Shown here: one piece after another, positions 1-13,025 of the stretch | How positions within the stretch are numbered: position 1 is the stretch's first letter | How the letters are laid out: every line of letters begins with the position of its first letter | Assembly: GCA_964529375.1 (NCBI GenBank) | Contig: CAZGUQ010000005.1 | Span: 1-33,785 of the forward strand | Direction: 5' to 3' | Origin: Candidatus Woesearchaeota archaeon | GTDB lineage: Archaea > Nanobdellota > Nanobdellia > Pacearchaeales > GW2011-AR1 | DNA length: 33,785 nucleotides | The notes under the pieces: model-generated | The model's database searches: none | Told to the model about the DNA's origin: nothing | What the model saw: only the letters and a program-made list of their open reading frames with translations | Program-made: the position numbers and the translations under genes

Positions 1-85
1 TTGGCATATCTGCAGAAACAGGCATTACAAAGAATCCTGCCAAGACTAGGACAACCAACGGCAACAAAACCAAATATTTTTTCAT
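1..85 (-). CDS. N-terminal fragment of a signal-peptide protein (continues beyond window start)
   Basis: Minus strand from ATG at 85-83 reads MKKYLVLLPLVVLVLAGFFVMPVSADMP, a typical signal peptide/TM. Same orientation as the DUF411 gene and 25 nt downstream of it. Truncated by the window edge, so absent from the ORF track. Confidence 0.35.
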   Translation of the reverse strand, partial: MKKYLVLLPLVVLVLAGFFVMPVSADMP

Positions 86-110: not shown

Positions 111-701
111 TTAAATTCTCATGAACTCATTGTAAGTTCCGTCATTGTTCACAGCGTAAATCACAAAATCCCCGGTTTTTTGTCCAGGCATTCCTGGAGA
201 ACCCATCGGCATTCCAGGCATTGCAATTCCCCTTAGGTCTGGCTGCTCTTTTAACAATTTTTCAACAGCTTCAAGAGGTATATGGCCTTCTACAAAATAA
301 TCTCCTATGATTGTAGTATGGCAACTCTCTAATTCAGAAGGCACCCCATACTCTCTTTTTGTTGCTTCTGAATCCTGAACGTTGAATGAATTAACTTTTG
401 GCTCTGTTTTCCCAGCAACATATTTCGAATAAACATCGCAGCATCCGCATGTTATTGATTTGTAGATATCTATCTGTGAAACTTGATTTATGTTTTCAAA
501 ACTGCTGGTTCCAGAACCTCTTGTTAATAATAGAATAAATAAAAAAACCGCGATTATTCCAATAAATAAAACCCACACCCTACTCTTCTTCTGCTTATTA
601 TCTTCTTCCATTTTATGTGTTTCCTGTTTTTCTAAATTTTTTAAGTCATTGCAACATCCTTTTTCTTTGTGCTTTCCCGTATGACAGCATTCCATTAACA
701 A
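111..701 (-). CDS. DUF411/CopG-family copper-binding protein, TM-anchored, with Cys/His-rich N-terminal tail
   Basis: 196-aa ORF. ITCGCCDVY (CxCC), ESCHTTIIGDYFVEGHIP and GIAMPGMPMGSPGM are hallmark blocks of DUF411/CopG-type proteins. One TM (WVLFIGIIAVFLFILLL). N-terminal MECCHTGKHKEKGCC. Start overlaps the stop of the upstream gene (695-701). Confidence 0.85.
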   Translation of the reverse strand: MLMECCHTGKHKEKGCCNDLKNLEKQETHKMEEDNKQKKSRVWVLFIGIIAVFLFILLLTRGSGTSSFENINQVSQIDIYKSITCGCCDVYSKYVAGKTEPKVNSFNVQDSEATKREYGVPSELESCHTTIIGDYFVEGHIPLEAVEKLLKEQPDLRGIAMPGMPMGSPGMPGQKTGDFVIYAVNNDGTYNEFMRI

Positions 702-934
702 CCCCCTACCATTCCTGTTCCGCTTGTTGTGGCAATCTGTCCCTGGAATCTTGCAGGTATTGTTCCATGCATTTCATAATTCATGATTTCATTTTCTGTC
801 CAGCCAGATGTGTCTATTTGCCCATTTGCATTCACGGAATTTCCTGTTGCAGAACCCTTGAAAAATACAGTATAAATTACTGCCAATAACAAAATTCCTA
901 TGATTACCCACAGTACTGTTTTCTGTGTTTCCAT
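695..934 (-). CDS. small N-terminally TM-anchored protein ending in GMVGGC
   Basis: 79-aa ORF. TM helix VLWVIIGILLLAVIYTVFF. C-terminus TSGTGMVGGC-stop. Starts 3 nt after the stop of the 938-1099 ORF and overlaps the DUF411 start. Confidence 0.6.
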   Translation of the reverse strand: METQKTVLWVIIGILLLAVIYTVFFKGSATGNSVNANGQIDTSGWTENEIMNYEMHGTIPARFQGQIATTSGTGMVGGC

Positions 935-937
935 TTT

Positions 938-1099
938 TTAACAGCCCCCGACCATACCGCTATATGCGCTTGCTGCCTGCCCTGCATTGGATGAAAGAGC
1001 ACCTGTGCTGCCTCCTCCGCCCTGGAAAAATATAGTGTAAACAACAGCCAGTAACAAAATTCCTATAATTACCCAAAGCACGATTTTTCCTGTTTCCAT
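938..1099 (-). CDS. small N-terminally TM-anchored protein ending in GMVGGC (not in ORF track)
   Basis: Hand translation of the minus strand gives METGKIVLWVIIGILLLAVVYTIFFQGGGGSTGALSSNAGQAASAYSGMVGGC-stop (53 aa, 162 nt in frame). GGAGGT Shine-Dalgarno (complement of 1111-1118) lies about 12 nt upstream. The N-terminal helix is nearly identical to that of the 695-934 product. Confidence 0.55.
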   Translation of the reverse strand: METGKIVLWVIIGILLLAVVYTIFFQGGGGSTGALSSNAGQAASAYSGMVGGC

Positions 1100-1126
1100 T
1101 TGTTATTTTTTACCTCCTAAAATAAA

Positions 1127-1828
1127 TTAACATCCTCCAACCATGCCACCAGATGCCTGTCCTTGTTCAATTCCTCTGTAAGCATTTGTTGTAAGATTTA
1201 TGTAACTGACTTCAATGCCATAACTTTTCATTACCTGCGCTTTCCCTTCTAGTATTCCGGGAAAGAAAAGAGTTTTCCATTTTCCTACTTCTGTTAGAAT
1301 CTCCTCATCACTGAATTCTGTTCCGTGATATTTAATCAAGTATTTTGCCAATCCGCGCATTGCATAGCTGTGTGCGCAGCCGCACGCTGCTTTTCCATTG
1401 CTGAAAATAACACTTCTGGCTCCACAGCAATACTCACACGCAATTCCTTTATATTGATTATATAATATGTCAATGTATCTATCCAAATCAGCATCCTCAA
1501 GTTCTTCAACCCTGTCTATGTTTCCAAGCAGACTTATTGTTTCCTCTGTTTTTGTTGGATTATTTGGAGAAACATCATCATACGTTATTCCAAGCTCCTC
1601 TCCATAAATCTCTGGAACACCAGCAGGAACAATAGTATAGGCGGAAACAGTTCCTATGCCACTACTTCCAATGGCACTTCCTGTTTGCTCTGTCCTGTTT
1701 CCTGAATAAGTATATAAGAGGATTCCTGCAAGGACAACAACAATGGCAACCTGGGCATAAAATTCCCAGTCTGTTTTTTTATTTGTTTGCTTTACCCCGG
1801 AATTTTCTGGTTTGTTTTTCAATTCCAT
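1127..1828 (-). CDS. TM-anchored Cys-rich protein (PCYCGC-motif-like domain) ending in GMVGGC
   Basis: 233-aa ORF. TM helix YAQVAIVVVLAGILLYTY. Cys cluster GIACEYCCGARS...GKAACGCAHSYAMRG resembles the PCYCGC-motif family often linked to copper loci. C-terminus QASGGMVGGC-stop. Confidence 0.7.
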   Translation of the reverse strand: MELKNKPENSGVKQTNKKTDWEFYAQVAIVVVLAGILLYTYSGNRTEQTGSAIGSSGIGTVSAYTIVPAGVPEIYGEELGITYDDVSPNNPTKTEETISLLGNIDRVEELEDADLDRYIDILYNQYKGIACEYCCGARSVIFSNGKAACGCAHSYAMRGLAKYLIKYHGTEFSDEEILTEVGKWKTLFFPGILEGKAQVMKSYGIEVSYINLTTNAYRGIEQGQASGGMVGGC

Positions 1829-1895: not shown

Positions 1896-2381
1896 TTAAT
1901 TCCTCAAAACAACAATATTATTCATTCCCCTTCTTTTTCTTTCTATCAATTGCTTTGCCTCTAGTTTGTCAAGAAGCCTTGTAATTCCGACTTTTCCTGT
2001 TCCGAGCTTTTCCATCAGTTCTGCCTGAAACATTGTCCCGTTTTCATTTTCAAGGATTTTTACAACTTCTCTTTCTTTTGGTTCTAAAGCAGCAAGGTCA
2101 ATTTTCTTTCTCTTTTCCTTGATTTTCTTAAGAATTATCTTTTCTCTCTGTTTCGTGAATATAAGAACAAATCCAATTACAAGCAACACTCCAACAATGC
2201 CAAGAGCAAAATATTTCTGGTAATTTACAGAATCGTACATTTCGCATGATTCAATATCCCCATGTTGAATATAACAGCTGTTTCTTACAGATTCCATTAA
2301 GGTATTATTAAACAAAAATACTAAGAATATCAAGATTATAGCAATTCCCAAAACTAAAAAGCCGACATTCTTGTTTTCCAT
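1896..2381 (-). CDS. membrane-tethered winged-helix (MarR/ArsR-like) transcription regulator
   Basis: 161 aa with two TM helices flanking a short loop holding two Cys (NSCYIQHGDIESCEMYD). A basic linker follows, then a C-terminal wHTH (EREVVKILENENGTMFQAELMEKLGTGKVGITRLLDKLEAKQLIERKRRGMNNIV). Confidence 0.7.
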   Translation of the reverse strand: MENKNVGFLVLGIAIILIFLVFLFNNTLMESVRNSCYIQHGDIESCEMYDSVNYQKYFALGIVGVLLVIGFVLIFTKQREKIILKKIKEKRKKIDLAALEPKEREVVKILENENGTMFQAELMEKLGTGKVGITRLLDKLEAKQLIERKRRGMNNIVVLRN

Positions 2382-2478
2382 GATTTAAAACCAAATAGTT
2401 TATTTATATACTTTTTGAAATGATGATAATAAATTTTAAATTAAAATCATGAACGCCCGGTTCTATAATTAACATTGT

Positions 2479-2880
2479 CTATGCTAACAGTATTATAAAG
2501 ATGGTTATAACAATCACTGTGTTTGCAAGGCAGTATTCGCAAAAATGTTTTATCACAAAACTCTGAACGCCAACGAGATAAAGAGAAAACAGAGCAGCCA
2601 AGCCGGTAATAACAAGAAAACCAGTCGTGAATAAACTTAAAGTTAAAACTGCGGGATATAAAATAGCGACTAGGCTTGCCGCGGCCACAAAAACATAATA
2701 TACCATTCCAAGAACAGTGTTTTCTGTTCCGAAATGCTCTGAATGCTCGCTTTCTATTACTTTATTGCAGTCTTTTCCAAGGATGCAGTAAAGCTGCTGC
2801 TTGTTTGTCTTTGTATGCCAGATATGATATGATAAGAAAAATCCAAGAAGTGATAAAATTAATGTGTAAGTGTATATCAT
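2479..2880 (-). CDS. vitamin K epoxide reductase (VKOR) family thiol oxidoreductase
   Basis: 133 aa, 4 predicted TM helices. Loop Cys pair C-ILGKD-C followed by V..S....FG....LG, and a CxxC (FCEYC) at the start of the last helix. This is the VKOR layout. Confidence 0.75.
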   Translation of the reverse strand: MIYTYTLILSLLGFFLSYHIWHTKTNKQQLYCILGKDCNKVIESEHSEHFGTENTVLGMVYYVFVAAASLVAILYPAVLTLSLFTTGFLVITGLAALFSLYLVGVQSFVIKHFCEYCLANTVIVITIFIILLA

Positions 2881-2984: not shown

Positions 2985-3536
2985 TCATTCAATTAATTTT
3001 CCTATTATTAATTTAAAATCATTCATTTCGGCATTCAAATCCCCTTGCCTTTCATATCCGTTTCCTATTCTTATGTATTTCCCGCCAAAAACAAAAGTAG
3101 GAATAGAGCCTTCTGGATTATATTTTTTATATATATTAAGAATTTCTTGAGGTACTTCTGTTTCTGTCCATGAAGTCAGTGTATTGTCTCCTATATCAAT
3201 CTCCCAGTGCTGAAGATTAATCTGGCTGGAAAAATTCTCAGCTGCCAGACTATCAAAAGTATCTGCAATCCATTGGCAATGGGAACACCATGTTGTTGAA
3301 AAAAGGATTACATAAGGTCTCCCGCTATTATCCACCAAAATTTGATTTCCTGTATCATAAAATGTAGAGCCTTCTACAGATATTTGATTTTCTTGGTTTC
3401 CTCCCCAAGAATCAGAAACCACAAAATAAATCATTACTGCAACAATAATGAAAGCAATCAAATAAAATCCAAGGGTTGATTTTTTTATTTCTGTTATATT
3501 TTTTTCTATATTCTGCCCGACACTTTTATCATCCAT
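2985..3536 (-). CDS. TM-anchored thioredoxin-fold protein (WCSHC active site)
   Basis: 183 aa. N-terminal TM (FYLIAFIIVAVMIYFVV). FSTTWCSHCQW CxxC motif and cis-Pro-like GSIPTFVF, typical of the thioredoxin/TlpA fold. Confidence 0.75.
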   Translation of the reverse strand: MDDKSVGQNIEKNITEIKKSTLGFYLIAFIIVAVMIYFVVSDSWGGNQENQISVEGSTFYDTGNQILVDNSGRPYVILFSTTWCSHCQWIADTFDSLAAENFSSQINLQHWEIDIGDNTLTSWTETEVPQEILNIYKKYNPEGSIPTFVFGGKYIRIGNGYERQGDLNAEMNDFKLIIGKLIE

Positions 3537-3688: not shown

Positions 3689-4417
3689 TTAAGCAACAGA
3701 AGCTATTTCAGCCTCAAACTGTGTCCAGGGATAAGCGCCGGAAATGCTTGTTGCATCTCCTGTTTCTGTATTAACAATTACAAAGAAAGGCGTTCCCCTT
3801 CCGCCTGCACTCGTTGCCTGTGCGAGTTCTTTGCTGACTTCTGAAGCCATTTTAGAACCGTCAAGGCAGCTGTTGAATTCTCCTGTGTTCAGTCCTAGTT
3901 GTGATGCATATGACTTAAGGCTTGCAACATCAAGAGCCTGCTGATTTGTGAAAAGCTTATCATGATATTCCCAGAACTTTTCTTGCTCATCTGCACATAA
4001 AGATGCCTCTGCAGCTTTTTGTGCCCTTGGATGTATTGAGTTCAAAGGAAATTGCTTGTAAACCAAATTAACTTCACCATTTGTGAAATAACTGCTTGCC
4101 TTAAAATCTGTTACTGCACCCTCAAAGGCTCTTGCACAAAAAGGACATTCAAAGTCAGAAAATTCAACTATAGATATTTTTGCTTCTGGATTTCCCAAAA
4201 CAGGATCATTATCTTCTATAAGAGCATTTGCGTTTATGCTTGGCTGATTATTGCTTCCAGTGTCTGTTACAGCTGCTCCAGTGGGGCTTCCCCCATCTCC
4301 TCTAAACATGAAAAAACCACCAATTACAATAACTATCAAAAGTAGTAAGGTAGAATATTTCCATAAAGAATCTTTCTTTATAGTTATTGTTCCGCTCTCT
4401 TTATTTTCTTCTTCCAT
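3689..4417 (-). CDS. TM-anchored DsbA-like thiol:disulfide oxidoreductase
   Basis: 242 aa. N-terminal TM. EFSDFECPFCARAF (CPFC), the helical insert (FWEYHDKLF) and GTPFFVI are typical of the DsbA/Thioredoxin_4 family. Confidence 0.85.
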   Translation of the reverse strand: MEEENKESGTITIKKDSLWKYSTLLLLIVIVIGGFFMFRGDGGSPTGAAVTDTGSNNQPSINANALIEDNDPVLGNPEAKISIVEFSDFECPFCARAFEGAVTDFKASSYFTNGEVNLVYKQFPLNSIHPRAQKAAEASLCADEQEKFWEYHDKLFTNQQALDVASLKSYASQLGLNTGEFNSCLDGSKMASEVSKELAQATSAGGRGTPFFVIVNTETGDATSISGAYPWTQFEAEIASVA

Positions 4418-6899: not shown

Positions 6900-7847
6900 T
6901 CACAACTTCTTTTTCATTATATGTTCGTAGGCGCTGTAAGCCGCAGTGCAGGCATCTGCAACTCCTGTAATAAGCTGCTTAAACGGCTTGTCTGTAACAT
7001 CTCCGGCTGCAAATACTCCTGGAATGTTTGTTTCTGAAGTCATATGGTTTATTTTTATTTCTCCTGCGCTATTCAGCTTAACACCGAGCGATTTTGCCAA
7101 ATCTGAAAGAGCTATATGCCCTATTGCGACGAAAACACCATTAACTTTCAATTCGCGGGATCCAAGATATGATTTATCTAAGATTACTGACGTAACAGAT
7201 TCTTTGCCTCTTATCTCACTTATATTTGTATTATTTATTACTTCTATCTTTTTATTTTTTTGAATCCGCATCAGGTTTATTGGTTCAGGATGAATTTGTT
7301 CTTTGTGGTAAATGATATAAATTTTTTTTGTATGCTCTGCAAGAAGAAGCGCATCTTTTGCCGCGCTATCTGAACCGCCAATAACAGCAACTACTCTATT
7401 TTTATATAAAGGGGCATCACATAAAGCACAATAGCTTATTCCTTTATTTTCAAATTCCCTCGAACCTCTAACTTCTTCTGGAAGCTTTCTCAATTTTGTT
7501 CCTGTTGCAAAAAGAATTGTTTTTCCTTGGTATTTTGTTTTTTCTGTAATAATAGAAAAAGAGCTCTTCATTTTTTTTATGGAAACAGCTTTCTCTCCTT
7601 TTATGGTTACAAGATTGTAAGAACGCGTATGTTTTTCAATATTTTTCGCAAGTTCTGGTCCAGAGATTGTTGTAAAGCCAGGATAATTTTCGACAGTATC
7701 TGTTGTTGTTATAACTCCGCCAATAGAAAGTTCTGTTCCGTGAGTGGATCCAAGGACAAGTGTTTTCAATCCTAACCTGGCAGCATACATTGCTCCGGCT
7801 AATCCGGAGCCGCCTGCACCGATGATGATGAAGTCATAAGATTCCAT
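6900..7847 (-). CDS. trxB: thioredoxin-disulfide reductase
   Basis: 315 aa. FAD fold IIIGAGGSGLAGA, redox CALC (CxxC), NADPH fold VIGGSDSA, GVFAAGD near the C-terminus. Confidence 0.9.
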   Translation of the reverse strand: MESYDFIIIGAGGSGLAGAMYAARLGLKTLVLGSTHGTELSIGGVITTTDTVENYPGFTTISGPELAKNIEKHTRSYNLVTIKGEKAVSIKKMKSSFSIITEKTKYQGKTILFATGTKLRKLPEEVRGSREFENKGISYCALCDAPLYKNRVVAVIGGSDSAAKDALLLAEHTKKIYIIYHKEQIHPEPINLMRIQKNKKIEVINNTNISEIRGKESVTSVILDKSYLGSRELKVNGVFVAIGHIALSDLAKSLGVKLNSAGEIKINHMTSETNIPGVFAAGDVTDKPFKQLITGVADACTAAYSAYEHIMKKKL

Positions 7848-7853
7848 TTTTTG

Positions 7854-8462
7854 TTAAGATATCAATATACTGATAATTCTTCCCACAGAAAATGCTAAGA
7901 ATGCAGCTATTCCGCCAATTATCAGAGTTTGAAAAGTTGATTTAATTTTATGCTTTCCAGTAACTTCCCCCTCAAACCAGCCAATGGTGATTAGGGCAAT
8001 GCCAGTCAATACTATAGAATATTTAAATTGGTTTTCTATAATTACCGGATTTTTTGTGATAGCAGCCACTATGAAAGATAGCAAAGGAAGAAGTCCTATT
8101 AACAAAAATGAAATAAAGGTTGCTGTTGCACCTTTCATCGGATGCTTATCTTGTTTTTTTATTAATTCATTCCGCGATTTTATTGCAAAATAATGCGCGA
8201 CAGCCATGGAAAATCCATCTGCAACCAGATTTGCAAAGCCAAGAGCAAGAACTACAATAGGAGTTAAAGAAGCTCCTATAACTCCCGAAACAACAGCGAA
8301 TGTGGTGATTGAGCCGTCCATTCCGCCATAAACAAGTTCTGGAAGATATTTTCTTTCAATTTTTTGTGTTTCTTTTTCTATCTTTTCTTCCTCTTTTTTT
8401 ATGCTTCTTCCCATTTTTATATCAAGAAAACAGGGTTTAAAATGTTTTTTAGATTGGTTCAA
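7854..8462 (-). CDS. VIT1/CCC1-family iron/manganese transporter
   Basis: 202 aa. ELVYGGMDGSITTFAVVSG signature followed by several TM helices. An alternative ATG lies at 8414. Confidence 0.75.
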   Translation of the reverse strand: MNQSKKHFKPCFLDIKMGRSIKKEEEKIEKETQKIERKYLPELVYGGMDGSITTFAVVSGVIGASLTPIVVLALGFANLVADGFSMAVAHYFAIKSRNELIKKQDKHPMKGATATFISFLLIGLLPLLSFIVAAITKNPVIIENQFKYSIVLTGIALITIGWFEGEVTGKHKIKSTFQTLIIGGIAAFLAFSVGRIISILIS

Positions 8463-9543: not shown

Positions 9544-11202
9544 ATGAGAAAAACAGGCTTGGCGAAAGGAATTGGTTATGCTCTTGCAATTGGTTCTTTG
9601 GCAAATACAGCCTATGCACAAGATAGCGGAAGACAAGCAAGAAGCAACGAACTTTATTGCATGTTAAACCAAGAAGGAAAATATGTTCTTAGCTCTGATA
9701 GCACAGGGCCAATAGTCAGAAAAGATTCAACGGGAAAAATAATAAAAGAAGATTTTTGCGCAACAGTTCCATTAAGATATCTTCCAAGAAACATAAGAAC
9801 ACCAGTCGCTGGAAGAGATTCTGTAAGAAAAACCGCAATGCCTATTGAAAGAAGCATATCAACACAAAGAACAGAATCAAGAGACACATTAAGAGCAAGA
9901 ATTGTACCAAGAGTTGAAGCACTCTCCCAAGATACTTCAAGGAGAGCAATTCAGGGAATAGAAACAAGGAACATAGAATCAACAGACATAAAATATCTTC
10001 CAAAGTTAATGGAGGGGATTATTTATGAAATTTACAGAGATCCCAAGACAGATTCCTTAAAAATTGAGTTTATCCCTAAAGAAATGAGAGTTGGTTTGCC
10101 GAGGGGAGAATATAGGCAAACAAACCAGGGAGATAGTATTCTTATTGATTTGGGAGTTATAGATGAGGTTGATAACAGGCAGTTCAGATTTAACACTAAA
10201 GAATTAGAAGAAAAGATTAGAGATTACTTAGAAAGAAAAAATATAAGAATAAATTCTGTTCGCGATCTCCCAAAGCTTGCAGAGGGAGAAGTTTATGAGA
10301 TATACAAGGATGAAAATGATTCTATAATCACTTCAATTGTACCCAGAGAAATCAGGGAAAGAAGAAAAGAACTTGGATTGCTTTATTCAGAGTTCTACAG
10401 AGAAACTAGTCAAAAAGACAGCATCATTGTCCATCCAAATGTTCTGAGTGAAGTTAATAATGACAGTCTTGAAATCAGATTAGGAAACATAGAGAGAATA
10501 ACAACCCCTTACAGAATAAATTCAAGAGGAGAAAGGGTTGAAGAAGAAGAAGAAAGACAACCGCAAACACAAACACAGCCAGCACAAAGACAGGTAAGAA
10601 GAATAGAAACAGGAAGAAAACAAACAATAAACAAAGCAACTCTTGGTTTGGAAGCTGGAATTGGTTCTAGAGAAGAAATTGCTTTAGGTTTATTTTCAGA
10701 AATTCCATTGAACAAATTCCTCAATGCAGAAATCTTTGGAAATTATCATGTTTCCCGTGGAAAACCCATTTACTCTGACACAACTACAGAAACAACAATG
10801 AGAGAAACGCAGTTGATAGGCGGAACAGGAGCAACTGCAACTTACAAAGATAGAACAGATGAAATTTCAACAAGTTTAATGGAAGAAATACTTGCAGAAG
10901 CGGGCGTTGGATTAACATTCAGAATTGACAATTTTGAACTGCCGTTGAGAGCTGGAGCTGGTTTTGTAAATGAAACAGAAACTCAAAATGGAAAATCAAA
11001 AATAACATTCACAAGAAATCTTCAGGAATTAGCGAGTGATTCAATATCAAACACAAGAGTTCTTGGGCCAGAATTAAAGGCAAGATACTTTGCAAGTGCT
11101 GGTTTAAGATATAATGTAAATAAAAATTTGTCTGTCGGCGTTTCCGGAAACAGGATTGGAAACAGGAACAGCATAAGGGCAGGCATAAGGGGGAAATTTT
11201 AA
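9544..11202 (+). CDS. secreted protein with two ~90-aa internal repeats and a C-terminal OMP-like beta-barrel region
   Basis: 552 aa. Signal peptide ending AYA-QD. Repeats DIKYLPKLMEGIIYEIYRD... and VRDLPKLAEGEVYEIYKD.... An E/Q-rich linker follows. The last ~190 aa form amphipathic strands (AGVGLTFRI, LRAGAGFVNE, YFASAGLRYNV, LSVGVSGNRIG) ending SIRAGIRGKF. Confidence 0.7.
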   Translation: MRKTGLAKGIGYALAIGSLANTAYAQDSGRQARSNELYCMLNQEGKYVLSSDSTGPIVRKDSTGKIIKEDFCATVPLRYLPRNIRTPVAGRDSVRKTAMPIERSISTQRTESRDTLRARIVPRVEALSQDTSRRAIQGIETRNIESTDIKYLPKLMEGIIYEIYRDPKTDSLKIEFIPKEMRVGLPRGEYRQTNQGDSILIDLGVIDEVDNRQFRFNTKELEEKIRDYLERKNIRINSVRDLPKLAEGEVYEIYKDENDSIITSIVPREIRERRKELGLLYSEFYRETSQKDSIIVHPNVLSEVNNDSLEIRLGNIERITTPYRINSRGERVEEEEERQPQTQTQPAQRQVRRIETGRKQTINKATLGLEAGIGSREEIALGLFSEIPLNKFLNAEIFGNYHVSRGKPIYSDTTTETTMRETQLIGGTGATATYKDRTDEISTSLMEEILAEAGVGLTFRIDNFELPLRAGAGFVNETETQNGKSKITFTRNLQELASDSISNTRVLGPELKARYFASAGLRYNVNKNLSVGVSGNRIGNRNSIRAGIRGKF

Positions 11203-11203
11203 G

Positions 11204-11533
11204 ATGAAAAATTTAAGGAATTATTTAACTGCAGGGATGGTTGGACTTAGTTTATATGGATGTTTGACAGAACAAGATTCAATACAAAACAGACAGGGTA
11301 ATACACAAAAACAGCAAACAGAAGAATATTCTTTTGATAGGTTTGGGGTTACTACTAAAAGTATTCCTATAAAAATTGAAGGAGAAGCTTTAGGTATTAC
11401 ATCTGGTGATTTTGATGGAGATGGTGATATAGATATCGCTACTATCATTCGTAGATCTAGTGCTCTGGTCAATTATGATTTTTTAAAAATCTATGAAAAT
11501 AAAATTCCCCAGAAAACAGGAGAACAGAGATAA
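11204..11533 (+). CDS. small lipoprotein-like protein with FG-GAP/VCBS-like motif
   Basis: 109 aa. The N-terminus GMVGLSLYGC resembles a lipobox. GDFDGDGDIDIA is a Ca-binding FG-GAP-type motif. Starts 1 nt after the upstream stop. Confidence 0.55.
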   Translation: MKNLRNYLTAGMVGLSLYGCLTEQDSIQNRQGNTQKQQTEEYSFDRFGVTTKSIPIKIEGEALGITSGDFDGDGDIDIATIIRRSSALVNYDFLKIYENKIPQKTGEQR

Positions 11534-11534
11534 G

Positions 11535-13025
11535 ATGAAAAACACAAAACTACTTTTAATCTCTCTCGCATTAATCTTTCTAATTTCGCTTGTTTCTTTT
11601 GCAAGCGCAGCAAGCGTCATCACAAACATATTTTATGATTCAACAACAGAAAGAAATGCGACAATACCTTACGGAGAGCAGATTGGATTGATAATCAGCG
11701 CTGATTCGATTTTTGAAGATAACATGACATTAAGTGTTGATTTGCTTGATTCTAATGGAGATTTTATAAGAAACTTGCTTTCTGTTTTCACAACCAGCGA
11801 TTCTTATTCAAACTATATTATTTTGGGGCCAACTCTTTACAATTCTACTGGAGATTATAAAATTATTTCCACAATTACTGCTGCAAGCGGGCAGACAGAC
11901 ACAGATGAATTAACTCTTAGTGTAAATGCTCCAGCAACAGGAAACAATGCTCCTGTTATAATCTCAATTCCTGTAACACAAGTAAATGAAAGCCAAGTTT
12001 ATGTTTATCAAGTAACAGCAACAGATGCTGACAATGATGCTTTAACTTACACATTAACTCAAAATCCTAGCTGGCTTTCAATAAATTCTGGCACTGGTTT
12101 AATTTCTGGCACAGCTCCTAGCGTTGATTCAAATACAGATTTTGCAGTAACTGTTCAAGTATCAGACGGTGAAGACACAGCAACACAGTTTTATGTGATT
12201 ACTGTATTAAATGTTATTTCTCCGCCAATAAACAATGCTCCTGTTATAACATCAACGCCAATAACAAGTGTTAATGAAAGTACAGCATATTCTTACCAAG
12301 TTACTGCAACAGACGCTGATGGTGATTCCCTAATCTACTTTTTAACACAAGCTCCGGGTTGGCTTACAATAGATAGCAATGGCTTAGTTTCAGGAACAGC
12401 ACCTTCTGTAAATGCAAATACAGATTTCCCAATAATTATTCTAGTATCTGACGGACAAGCAAGTGCAACACAATCATATGTTTTAACTGTAATAGACATT
12501 TCCGCAGGAAATAATGCTCCTATAATTACATCAACCCCAATAACAAGTGTTGATGAAAATGCACAATATTCTTATCAGGTAACTGCAACAGATGCCGATG
12601 GAGATACATTAACTTACTCTTTCTCAGGTCCAAGCTGGCTTTCAATCAATGCAAATACTGGTTTGGTTTCGGGAACAGCACCTAGTGTTTCTTCTGACGC
12701 GCAATTCACAATTACAATAACTGTTTCAGACGGCACAGATTCTGCAACACAAACATATACATTAACTGTAAATGATGTTTCTGGAACAGGTGGGACAGGT
12801 GGAAAGAAAGGAGGCGGAGGAGTAAAGATTATTCCGGCAAATGATTTTGAAAATCAGAAATATCTTGATCAGTTTGGGCCGATAAATGCGGCTGAAGAAG
12901 AAACAAAAACTCCAGAGCAAAAAAGTTCTTTCTTGAAGGCACTTTTGATTCTTATTTGGATTGTTGTCTTTTTGCTCTTGATAGCTCTTGCTGTTTTGTT
13001 AGTTAGAAGAATAAGAAGAAAGTGA
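11535..13025 (+). CDS. surface adhesin with three tandem cadherin-like/putative-Ig domains and C-terminal TM anchor
   Basis: The ATG at 11535 gives signal peptide MKNTKLLLISLALIFLISLVSFASA. Three repeats of NNAP.I.S.P.T.V.E...Y.YQVTATDADGD.L.Y....P.WL.I....GL.SGTAP. G-rich stalk. TM plus RRIRRK at the end. Confidence 0.8.
   Translation: MKNTKLLLISLALIFLISLVSFASAASVITNIFYDSTTERNATIPYGEQIGLIISADSIFEDNMTLSVDLLDSNGDFIRNLLSVFTTSDSYSNYIILGPTLYNSTGDYKIISTITAASGQTDTDELTLSVNAPATGNNAPVIISIPVTQVNESQVYVYQVTATDADNDALTYTLTQNPSWLSINSGTGLISGTAPSVDSNTDFAVTVQVSDGEDTATQFYVITVLNVISPPINNAPVITSTPITSVNESTAYSYQVTATDADGDSLIYFLTQAPGWLTIDSNGLVSGTAPSVNANTDFPIIILVSDGQASATQSYVLTVIDISAGNNAPIITSTPITSVDENAQYSYQVTATDADGDTLTYSFSGPSWLSINANTGLVSGTAPSVSSDAQFTITITVSDGTDSATQTYTLTVNDVSGTGGTGGKKGGGGVKIIPANDFENQKYLDQFGPINAAEEETKTPEQKSSFLKALLILIWIVVFLLLIALAVLLVRRIRRK
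11943..12785 (+). repeat. intragenic tandem repeat (3 units of about 280-290 nt)
   Basis: Units start at 11943, 12231 and 12510, each with aacaatgctcct (NNAP), and encode the three cadherin-like domains. Confidence 0.75.

Follow-up and report, generated by a model that had tools for sequence, protein, structure and literature searches.

A C-terminal MVGGC tail common to three adjacent membrane-anchored proteins in a putative copper module of DPANN archaea and candidate phyla radiation bacteria

CopG, a copper-resistance protein of the thioredoxin fold, holds a Cu4 cluster via a CxCC motif and Met (PMC7558416), and CutF, a small exported Cys-motif protein encoded with the CopG homologue CutG, is needed for copper handling (PMC8456105). 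The stretch of DNA analysed here, i.e. 33,785 nucleotides (nt) of contig CAZGUQ010000005.1 from a Candidatus Woesearchaeota archaeon (hereafter the window), carries three minus-strand open reading frames (ORFs) of 233, 53 and 79 amino acids (aa), each ending in Gly-Met-Val-Gly-Gly-Cys (GMVGGC) followed by TAA, together with a gene for a CopG/DUF411 protein. The module formed by these genes is known from no fewer than 344 genomes at the species level and from about 2000 protein clusters; it is found in DPANN archaea and some bacteria of the candidate phyla radiation (CPR), in copper-resistance islands. The reading preferred here, tentatively and with rather less than an even chance of being correct, is that a conserved module for copper (thiophilic-metal) handling outside the cytoplasm has the three genes as its core, the tail completing a Cu(I)-thiolate site. 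DPANN and CPR together account for much of microbial diversity, and their conserved membrane proteins are mostly without a known function.

The likeness to CopG concerns both the genes and the ligands: CopG serves extracytoplasmic copper resistance, it is encoded in the same operon as the tail proteins and coupled to them, and the Cys-bridged cluster it binds relies on the same ligand types as those offered by the CxxCC and CGC motifs of the large (233-aa) protein and the Met/Cys tail. The large protein is, however, all-helical instead of having the thioredoxin fold and exhibits neither sequence nor fold similarity to CopG, which itself lacks both a C-terminal Cys tail and tail-only companions. 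An assignment of the three tail proteins themselves to DUF411/CopG was rejected, there being no match with Pfam, the profiles of the Protein Data Bank (PDB) or Foldseek (best E = 2.3). The CutF/DUF2946-type proteins (cutFOG) resemble the mini-proteins as small exported proteins with a short Cys motif encoded beside a CopG homologue, but CutF is distinguished by its cleavable signal peptide, its CxxxC in a central position and its Pro-rich C-terminus without a terminal Cys, and it serves a multicopper oxidase; no multicopper oxidase was seen here and there is no sequence similarity.

Another related case is SoxY, the invariant Cys of which lies in a C-terminal peptide that is rich in Gly, strictly conserved and must enter the active sites of its partners. 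SoxY is a soluble periplasmic β-sandwich protein paired with SoxZ in sox operons and its Cys is followed by further Gly residues, whereas in the present proteins the Cys is the last residue, the carriers are anchored by a transmembrane (TM) helix and no sox genes lie nearby. A SoxY-type carrier was rejected as an identification, with no match to the Pfam SoxY family and no sox genes in the recurrent neighbour clusters. Flexible termini bearing Cys are also known from copper and mercury proteins, with the CxC of CCS, the HCH of Ctr1, the C-terminal CC of MerA and the GMxCxxC loops of HMA domains, and Cu4S6 clusters from the Ace1, Cox17 and Ctr1 tails; in these, as proposed here, a short terminal peptide delivers a thiolate to a metal site or completes it, and the G-M-x..C of the tail resembles half of an HMA loop. 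To our knowledge, an invariant MVGGC with a single Cys at its end occurs in none of CCS, Ctr1, MerA, HMA, Ace1 and Cox17, nor does any of them have membrane-tethered paralogues consisting of the tail only. The PCYCGC family (PF13798), for which the first-pass annotation had proposed co-occurrence, likewise comprises Cys-rich extracytoplasmic proteins with a CGC-containing motif in metal contexts; none of 122 members of the large family matched it at E <= 0.1, nor did the protein of the window, so it is no conserved partner.

The earlier statement that no described family or sorting signal is defined by a terminal MVGGC was confirmed, as the searches of Pfam, NCBIfam, the PDB (by both sequence and fold) and full text were all negative. 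Neither Pfam (2025) nor NCBIfam r20 nor the searchable literature yielded a description of the motif or the domain: the full-text search for 'MVGGC' returned unrelated papers only, and no description of the module was found in the literature on DPANN and copper/DUF411 or on chaperones with a C-terminal Cys. The module is rated as a case of thiolate-based handling of metals or thiols outside the cytoplasm, assembled from new families with an unprecedented tail-sharing architecture.

The common tail and the mini-proteins that bear it

The three ORFs described in the first-pass annotation were reproduced in both coordinates and tails, and no further ORF with a GMVGGC ending occurs within the 33.8-kb window. 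In the order large, 53-aa and 79-aa gene, the tail codons are ggc/ggt/gga, atg, gtt/gtc/gta, gga/ggg/ggg, gga/ggc/ggt and tgt. They differ at almost all synonymous sites, as had been noted before, and the identity is therefore maintained at the protein level; chance is not a realistic account of an identical six-residue ending on three adjacent genes.

Both small ORFs, including the 53-aa one that was absent from the ORF track used for the first reading, are called as genes in public assemblies of the same organism. The near-identity claimed for their N-terminal TM helices holds (21/25 residues and 63/78 nt identical, with 7 synonymous and 5 non-synonymous codon differences). The ratios of non-synonymous to synonymous substitution rates (dN/dS), a check on orthologues that had been proposed, range from 0.06 to 0.16 for the 53-aa protein, from 0.12 to 0.31 for the 79-aa protein and from 0.08 to 0.11 for the large gene in pairwise comparisons with relatives; dS is near saturation and the ratios are therefore rough. 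Both small ORFs nevertheless appear to be under purifying selection.

The wider occurrence was followed in 80 species-level loci, these being the best-scoring of the 344 and biased toward Nanoarchaeota. One to three small TM-anchored tail ORFs follow the large gene in 74 of them, a linker-type tail ORF (as the 53-aa one) being found in most loci and the 79-aa type in 28. Among the 103 small ORFs collected across these loci, which were picked by the tail pattern [MQ][VIL]GxC, 102 end in MVGGC and one in MVGDC, i.e. all have M-V-G at positions −5 to −3 and Cys as the last residue. The possibility that the small ORFs are non-genes, with a common tail arising from local duplication or chance, might be prompted by the 53-aa ORF, short and missing from the track as it is; against it stand the divergence of the codons at nearly all synonymous sites, the dN/dS values, the retention of small ORFs in so many loci, the public gene calls and the 173 homologues of the 79-aa protein. 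Its probability is negligible, and the conservation data refute it.

The 79-aa protein is not just an anchor and a mere linker, as had been supposed. Among the matches listed for it, 120/120 end in xMVGGC, and the family has a near-invariant, Met- and His-rich core, (L/I)DTSGWTENE(I/K)MNYEMHGTIPAR, for which there is no Pfam match; this core is counted in favour of the copper reading, as far as its composition suggests metal binding. The 53-aa type exhibits a semi-conserved segment, AGQAASAYSG, ahead of the tail.

In the 24 loci containing both types, the TM helices of the linker-type and 79-aa-type proteins share a mean identity of 0.48 within a genome and of 0.31–0.34 between genomes, a difference that hints at gene conversion or at both helices having co-adapted to a common partner in the membrane. 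Some of the small tail proteins (17/103; among them those in loci L007, L016, L019, L022, L023, L027, L030, L031, L040 and L074), as well as 7/58 DUF411 proteins in other genomes, have an N-terminal M-x-CC motif; with such frequencies, the cytoplasmic CC was dismissed as a defining trait and is considered accessory. A second small TM-anchored type of about 50 aa, ending in ...GGGCGR or ...GAGCGR (L017 7999-8151 and 7 other loci), has a different Gly-rich Cys ending and occupies the same neighbourhoods as the tail genes.

The search for GMVGGC endings in other genomes, suggested at the first reading, revealed a tail that is widespread, in the families of this module. Metagenome contigs were scanned for the DNA pattern encoding G-M-V-G-G-C-TAA and 150 matches were classified: 55 are ORFs of the large family, 47 small TM-anchored ORFs of the linker type and 22 ORFs of the 79-aa type, so that 124 of about 150 fall in the three module families. 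The others comprise 5 ORFs truncated at contig ends (mostly cut large-family copies), 18 matches without a usable ORF (contig-edge cuts or chance) and 3 further cases, namely one CEHCCG variant of the large family and two short chance ORFs. For the 58 small tail ORFs with enough upstream sequence, the Cys motif of the large gene was found at most 1.5 kb upstream on the same strand in 55. It should be mentioned that the tail occurs also on one extra carrier type, a small domain resembling the N-terminal domain of archaeal/CPR DsbA-like proteins (L067 3164-3511), and that a second, divergent pair of a large and a small protein, both ending in LPGMVGGC, is present in L011 (10807-11803); the tail is therefore modular.

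The tail is thus specific to the module and not a general sorting signal, which would tag many unrelated families. The first-pass annotation had offered a processing or attachment signal as an alternative, the variants of which would be lipidation, removal of the Cys to expose a diglycine, a modification like that of ribosomally synthesised and post-translationally modified peptides (RiPPs), or attachment to the envelope or a host. Its strictly terminal position and five near-invariant residues are typical of signals recognised by enzymes, as is known for the short, position-fixed terminal motifs of PGF-CTERM, LPXTG and the lipobox; the mini-proteins are of the size of precursor peptides, and M-V-G-G-C fits, loosely, the end of the lipobox consensus. 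The tail, however, has no adjacent hydrophobic helix or charged stretch and faces outward, it is confined to the families of one operon, and the large protein bears it itself, in a position modelled as docked. Moreover, no gene for a peptidase, a sortase-like enzyme, E1/JAMM, YcaO, a radical-SAM enzyme, a flavin decarboxylase or a transferase recurs in the 80 neighbourhoods. Three specific identifications were rejected as well: an archaeosortase/sortase-type signal (the Cys is the last residue and the metagenome matches lie in the module families), a ubiquitin-like or diglycine sulfur carrier (the large protein is all-helical, the tails are outside and neither E1 nor JAMM is among the recurrent neighbours) and RiPP precursors (no modifying-enzyme family among the neighbour clusters found in at least 8 of the 80 loci). 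A signal function of the tail is consequently judged highly improbable. For annotation, the motif nevertheless provides a simple marker of genes for proteins below 100 aa, which are often missed by pipelines.

The large Cys-rich protein and its modelled tail

In the large protein, a Lys-rich N-terminus is followed by one TM helix and, after a linker, by a helical Cys-rich domain (residues ~64–222) and the C-terminal GMVGGC. Because the Lys-rich N-termini precede the single TM helix, the N-terminus is placed inside the cell, with the domain and the tail outside. Its 1967 database relatives are all unnamed or 'hypothetical', those with a labelled source being mostly from Nanoarchaeota (Pacearchaeota, Woesearchaeota), and 119/120 of the best homologues end in (M/Q)-(V/I)-G-x-C. 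When 1.84 billion cluster representatives were searched exhaustively with a profile, only 283 relatives were retrieved; among the best 150 of these 283 representatives (50% clustering), 125 end in G-x-C-COOH, 5 carry the tail with a short extension and 20 are without it, mostly obvious fragments. The tail-bearing divergent members, with ~33–45% identity, include Micrarchaeota and CPR bacteria (Magasanikbacteria), and in such members the motif widens to (L/M)-P-x-(M/Q)-V-G-G-C. In the 125 representatives, position −5 is occupied 88 times by Met, 32 times by Gln and 3 times by Trp, and the Val and both Gly residues of the tail are nearly invariant.

The Cys cluster CEYCCG...CGCAHS, pointed out in the first-pass annotation, is present at residues 131–154. 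In an alignment of 122 diverse members of the family, with identity down to ~33%, the invariant columns include C131, C134, C135, C149, C151, H153 and the terminal C233. The terminal Cys is, by this alignment, conserved just like the residues of the cluster, and the tail appears to be an integral and ancient trait of the large family.

Pfam and NCBIfam contain no family matching any of the three tail proteins, no Pfam family was matched consistently by the 122 members and a sequence-profile search of the PDB with the large family revealed no solved relative. The AlphaFold2 (AF2) model of the domain (residues 64–233), based on the 122 diverse sequences, has a mean predicted local distance difference test (pLDDT) of 95.8 and a predicted template modelling score (pTM) of 0.92, while the full-length model from 52 close homologues is moderate (pLDDT 78). 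The modelled domain is all-helical with a short β-bridged Cys loop, and Foldseek found no fold neighbour in the PDB (best E = 1.1 for the full-length and 2.3 for the domain model; TM-score <= 0.25). The model thus predicts a new fold, without a Pfam, NCBIfam or PDB relative.

In the domain model, the pLDDT averages ~84 over the C-terminal ten residues, the tail among them, and the prediction is thus of an ordered tail and not of a freely moving arm; in the large protein it resembles a peptide that is docked and recognised specifically. The alternation of Met and Gln argues that position −5 packs and does not ligate, while the near-invariant Val-Gly-Gly and the terminal position argue for a specific pocket that recognises the tail. 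The image of a Met and a Cys on a flexible Gly arm, put forward at the first reading, fits poorly with both the Gln residues at −5 and the modelled order.

The same features have to be weighed for a structural or assembly disulfide, by which the terminal Cys would pin the C-terminus of the large protein to the Cys cluster and cross-link the mini-proteins to the large protein or to each other. Such a role would agree with the even number of invariant Cys residues (six), the tail modelled as ordered against the domain, the extracytoplasmic location and the DsbA genes near some loci, and the TM helices of the mini-proteins, which are more alike in one genome (0.48) than across genomes (0.31), would be compatible with a complex common to both. 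CC and CGC beside an invariant His are, however, known in general as typical of metal sites and as poor in disulfide geometry, and DsbA or VKOR is absent from most of the 80 loci. A disulfide would need neither the invariance of Val-Gly-Gly nor a strictly last Cys, only 5/130 tails being extended, and it leaves the copper-gene neighbourhood unexplained, so that this explanation is regarded as distinctly unlikely.

Operon order and the copper genes of the neighbourhood

The features of the window that belong to the operon and its upstream context are summarized in Table 1. Across the 80 loci the conserved order is a helix-turn-helix (HTH) regulator (66/80), the large gene (80/80), the small tail genes (74/80) and DUF411 (59/80).

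Table 1 Features of the tail-protein locus and its surroundings in the window
Feature	Position	Strand	Basis
Start of a 69-aa secreted Met/His-rich protein, cut by the window edge	1-85	-	full gene L082 2868-3077
Membrane-anchored CopG/DUF411 protein, 194 aa	111-695	-	Pfam DUF411; PDB 6WIS match
79-aa mini-protein: TM anchor, conserved Met/His core, GMVGGC	695-934	-	ORF; 173 homologues
Core IDTSGWTENEIMNYEMHGTIPAR of the 79-aa protein, candidate Met/His metal-binding motif	749-817	-	near-invariant in family
53-aa mini-protein: TM anchor, Gly/Ser/Ala/Gln linker with AGQAASAYS, GMVGGC	938-1099	-	ORF; public gene call
Large tail-bearing protein, 233 aa	1127-1828	-	ORF
Tail codons G-M-V-G-G-C of the large protein (stop codon 1127-1129)	1130-1147	-	sequence
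Cys cluster C131-E-Y-C134-C135-G ... C149-G-C151-A-H153-S154 of the large protein	1367-1438	-	alignment of 122 sequences
Two-TM winged-helix regulator, DUF7343/MarR-like	1896-2381	-	Pfam
VKOR (upstream local context, non-core)	2479-2880	-	Pfam
Thioredoxin-like protein (upstream local context, non-core)	2985-3536	-	Pfam
DsbA-like protein (upstream local context, non-core)	3689-4417	-	Pfam

With regard to the translational coupling of all three tail genes to the DUF411 gene, as originally claimed, the part concerning the small genes holds: the gap between the 53-aa and 79-aa genes is 3 nt and the stop codon of the latter overlaps the DUF411 ATG (TAATG). The claim needs correcting for the large gene, which is separated from the 53-aa gene by a 27-nt spacer carrying a GGAGG site. 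The overlap indicates that the DUF411 protein starts with the ATG at 695 (MECCHTG...), not with the TTG at 701, and therefore begins with MECCHTGKHKEKGCC.

The DUF411 protein, with this N-terminus, a TM helix and the motifs CGCC, SCHT and GMPMGSPGMPG, matches Pfam PF04214 with E = 6e-25 (87.1 bits vs a cut-off of 27) and the Pseudomonas aeruginosa CopG structure 6WIS with E = 2e-20, the CGCC, SCHT and PGMPxGSPGM motifs being aligned. From these matches it can be taken as a true member of DUF411/CopG. As a separate observation, its N-terminal MECCHTGKHKEKGCC (window 650-695, minus strand) forms a cytoplasmic Cys-rich stretch, and several neighbours have cytoplasmic ends ...CCKRW or ...CCKE, i.e. 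a recurring terminal CC.

The regulator comprises a cytoplasmic winged helix, two TM helices and an extracytoplasmic loop, SCYIQHGDIESCEM, with two Cys, a His and a Met. Exactly two loop Cys residues in the pattern C-x5-10-C-[PE]-M were found in 61/63 relatives, making it, on the sequence, a candidate one-component sensor of an outward metal or redox signal. The two invariant Cys residues beside Met are counted as supporting the copper reading, should they indeed serve in sensing.

The link to copper through DUF411 proved to be stronger than first claimed. In addition to CopG itself (59/80), the known copper genes found within 6 kb, where the counts underestimate genes cut by contig ends, are CopZ/HMA in 26/80, cupredoxin-like proteins in 20/80 and P1B ATPases in 18/80; DUF5676 and DUF302 are each present in 16/80. 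In bacterial versions, the large gene is directly adjoined by a P1B ATPase in L062 and by a CsoR-like repressor in L073. The locus L082 carries the contig of the window itself past position 1, where the 69-aa secreted Met/His-rich protein (...HIAEMTSDHAQEMGAMFGHMVSNMAQGEDCLHH) opens a copper island. It is followed by a fusion of an HCPLC membrane protein with rhodanese, DUF5676, a Met-rich membrane protein, a cupredoxin-like protein and CopZ (MHCASC), and the island ends with a P1B ATPase that has a His/Met-rich N-terminus and the CPC, YN and MxxSS motifs, a set which we take to be the P1B-1 Cu(I)/Ag(I) signature.

Two further membrane proteins recur in the neighbourhood. The first, a multi-TM protein of ~172 aa with an invariant AHCPLCT after a signal-like N-terminus, lies downstream of DUF411 in ~56/80 loci; it has no Pfam family besides the rhodanese part present in the organism of the window (L082 3093-3938), and a separate rhodanese gene is nearby in ~12/80. 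The second, likewise multi-TM, contains CxxC in TM1, ends in ...CCKRW and was found in 28/80 within 6 kb.

These neighbours bear directly on the possibility that the terminal Cys is a covalent thiol-relay arm (forming a mixed disulfide, persulfide or polysulfide), as in SoxY or the DsbD/CcdA relays, with the CxxC and CGC of the large protein being redox-active. The HCPLC protein, the CxxC/CC membrane protein and rhodanese would then feed reducing equivalents or sulfane sulfur across the membrane. The invariant Gly-Gly-Cys C-terminal peptide indeed resembles the SoxY carrier arm (PMC5336275, PMC11237559), CopG is itself of the thioredoxin fold and the window has genes for DsbA-like, thioredoxin-like and VKOR proteins upstream. 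Genes for Sox, Dsr or sulfur oxidation, however, are not among the recurrent neighbours of the 80 loci, the core of the 79-aa protein is of a Met/His type typical of Cu(I)/Ag(I) binding and not of sulfur carriage, and in bacterial versions it is the CsoR-like repressor and the P1B ATPases that adjoin the large gene. VKOR (3/80) and DsbA (19/80) are also far rarer partners than CopG and the copper genes; with the thioredoxin-like protein in a single locus, all three were rejected as core partners, and of the thiol-oxidoreductase association proposed at the first reading only the occasional presence of DsbA remains, VKOR being no conserved partner. A covalent relay is thus considered fairly unlikely as the explanation of the tail. 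The relay and copper readings are nevertheless compatible, since a reductive relay could keep copper-binding thiols reduced.

A putative copper-thiolate site completed by the tail

Under the preferred copper reading, we infer metal binding, the identity of the metal, the docking of the tail at the Cys cluster, its exchange in trans and the hand-over to CopG in the following manner. The large protein would be a type-II membrane-anchored protein, the five invariant Cys residues of which (CxxCC and CGC) would form, together with one His, a metal-thiolate site. Its own C-terminal Cys, on (M/Q)-V-G-G-C-COOH, would dock back as the sixth thiolate, giving a ligand set that may suit a polynuclear Cu(I)-thiolate cluster like that held by CopG. 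Six thiolates fit a cluster of the Cu4S6 type, and the CC, CxC and CxxC spacing is, by analogy, that of copper-thiolate proteins and CopG.

The 53-aa and 79-aa proteins would represent the same tail on a membrane tether, acting in trans, with the latter adding its Met/His motif. Cu(I) released, e.g., from the P1B ATPase may be captured at the membrane surface by these tails, which would swap places with the cis tail at the docking site of the domain before the metal is handed to CopG/DUF411, the co-translated oxidoreductase; outside the cell, the same signal would be sensed by the membrane-bound HTH regulator with two Cys that is encoded upstream. Membrane tethering would fit cells that have no outer compartment to retain soluble chaperones.

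Several points weigh against this mechanism. Since 32/125 representatives have Gln at −5 and 3 have Trp, an essential role of Met as a Cu(I) ligand is precluded, and the near-invariant Val-Gly-Gly calls for a specific docking partner. In the covariation analysis by corrected mutual information (MIp), residues 155 and 150, which lie next to the CGC, rank highest among the non-local partners of position −5, the signal being only ~1.4 standard deviations and the analysis underpowered. The six invariant Cys residues could equally make three disulfides in an outward-facing domain, DsbA being present in some of the loci, and the HCPLC protein with its fused or adjacent rhodanese, as well as the CxxC/...CC protein, point equally to thiol or sulfur chemistry.

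A more far-reaching version of tail sharing may also be envisaged, in which the docked MVGGC-COOH is a removable part of the active site of the Cys5His domain and the tethered mini-proteins plug in, carrying a metal or a covalent adduct on the terminal Cys to and from the site; this would constitute a minimal carrier-peptide system specific to the ultrasmall cells of DPANN and CPR, and is deemed possible rather than probable. If the thiolate is exchangeable in trans, the module would illustrate how a copper relay can be retained on the surface of cells that lack a periplasm, and would offer a new ligand architecture to metallochaperone biology; if the tail is instead a covalent carrier or a site of modification, it would represent a new class of carrier peptide or signal. 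The system is tractable, with a domain model of very high confidence that is without a solved relative and a five-residue motif that can easily be mutated or synthesised.

As far as the rest of the window is concerned, an exact 11-mer, ATAAACTATTT, occurs at 1841-1851 and 2393-2403 (minus strand), these being its only two exact copies in the window. They are located 12–13 nt upstream of the start codons of the large gene and the regulator, beside TATA-like boxes; as a conserved operator the 11-mer was rejected, a comparable common motif not having been found in 21 other loci. According to the annotation of the identical contig, the stretches 6900-8462 and 9544-13025 contain a flavoprotein resembling thioredoxin reductase (Pyr_redox_2), an iron/manganese transporter (VIT1) and, in succession, large surface proteins that are either unannotated or He_PIG/Big_9-like.

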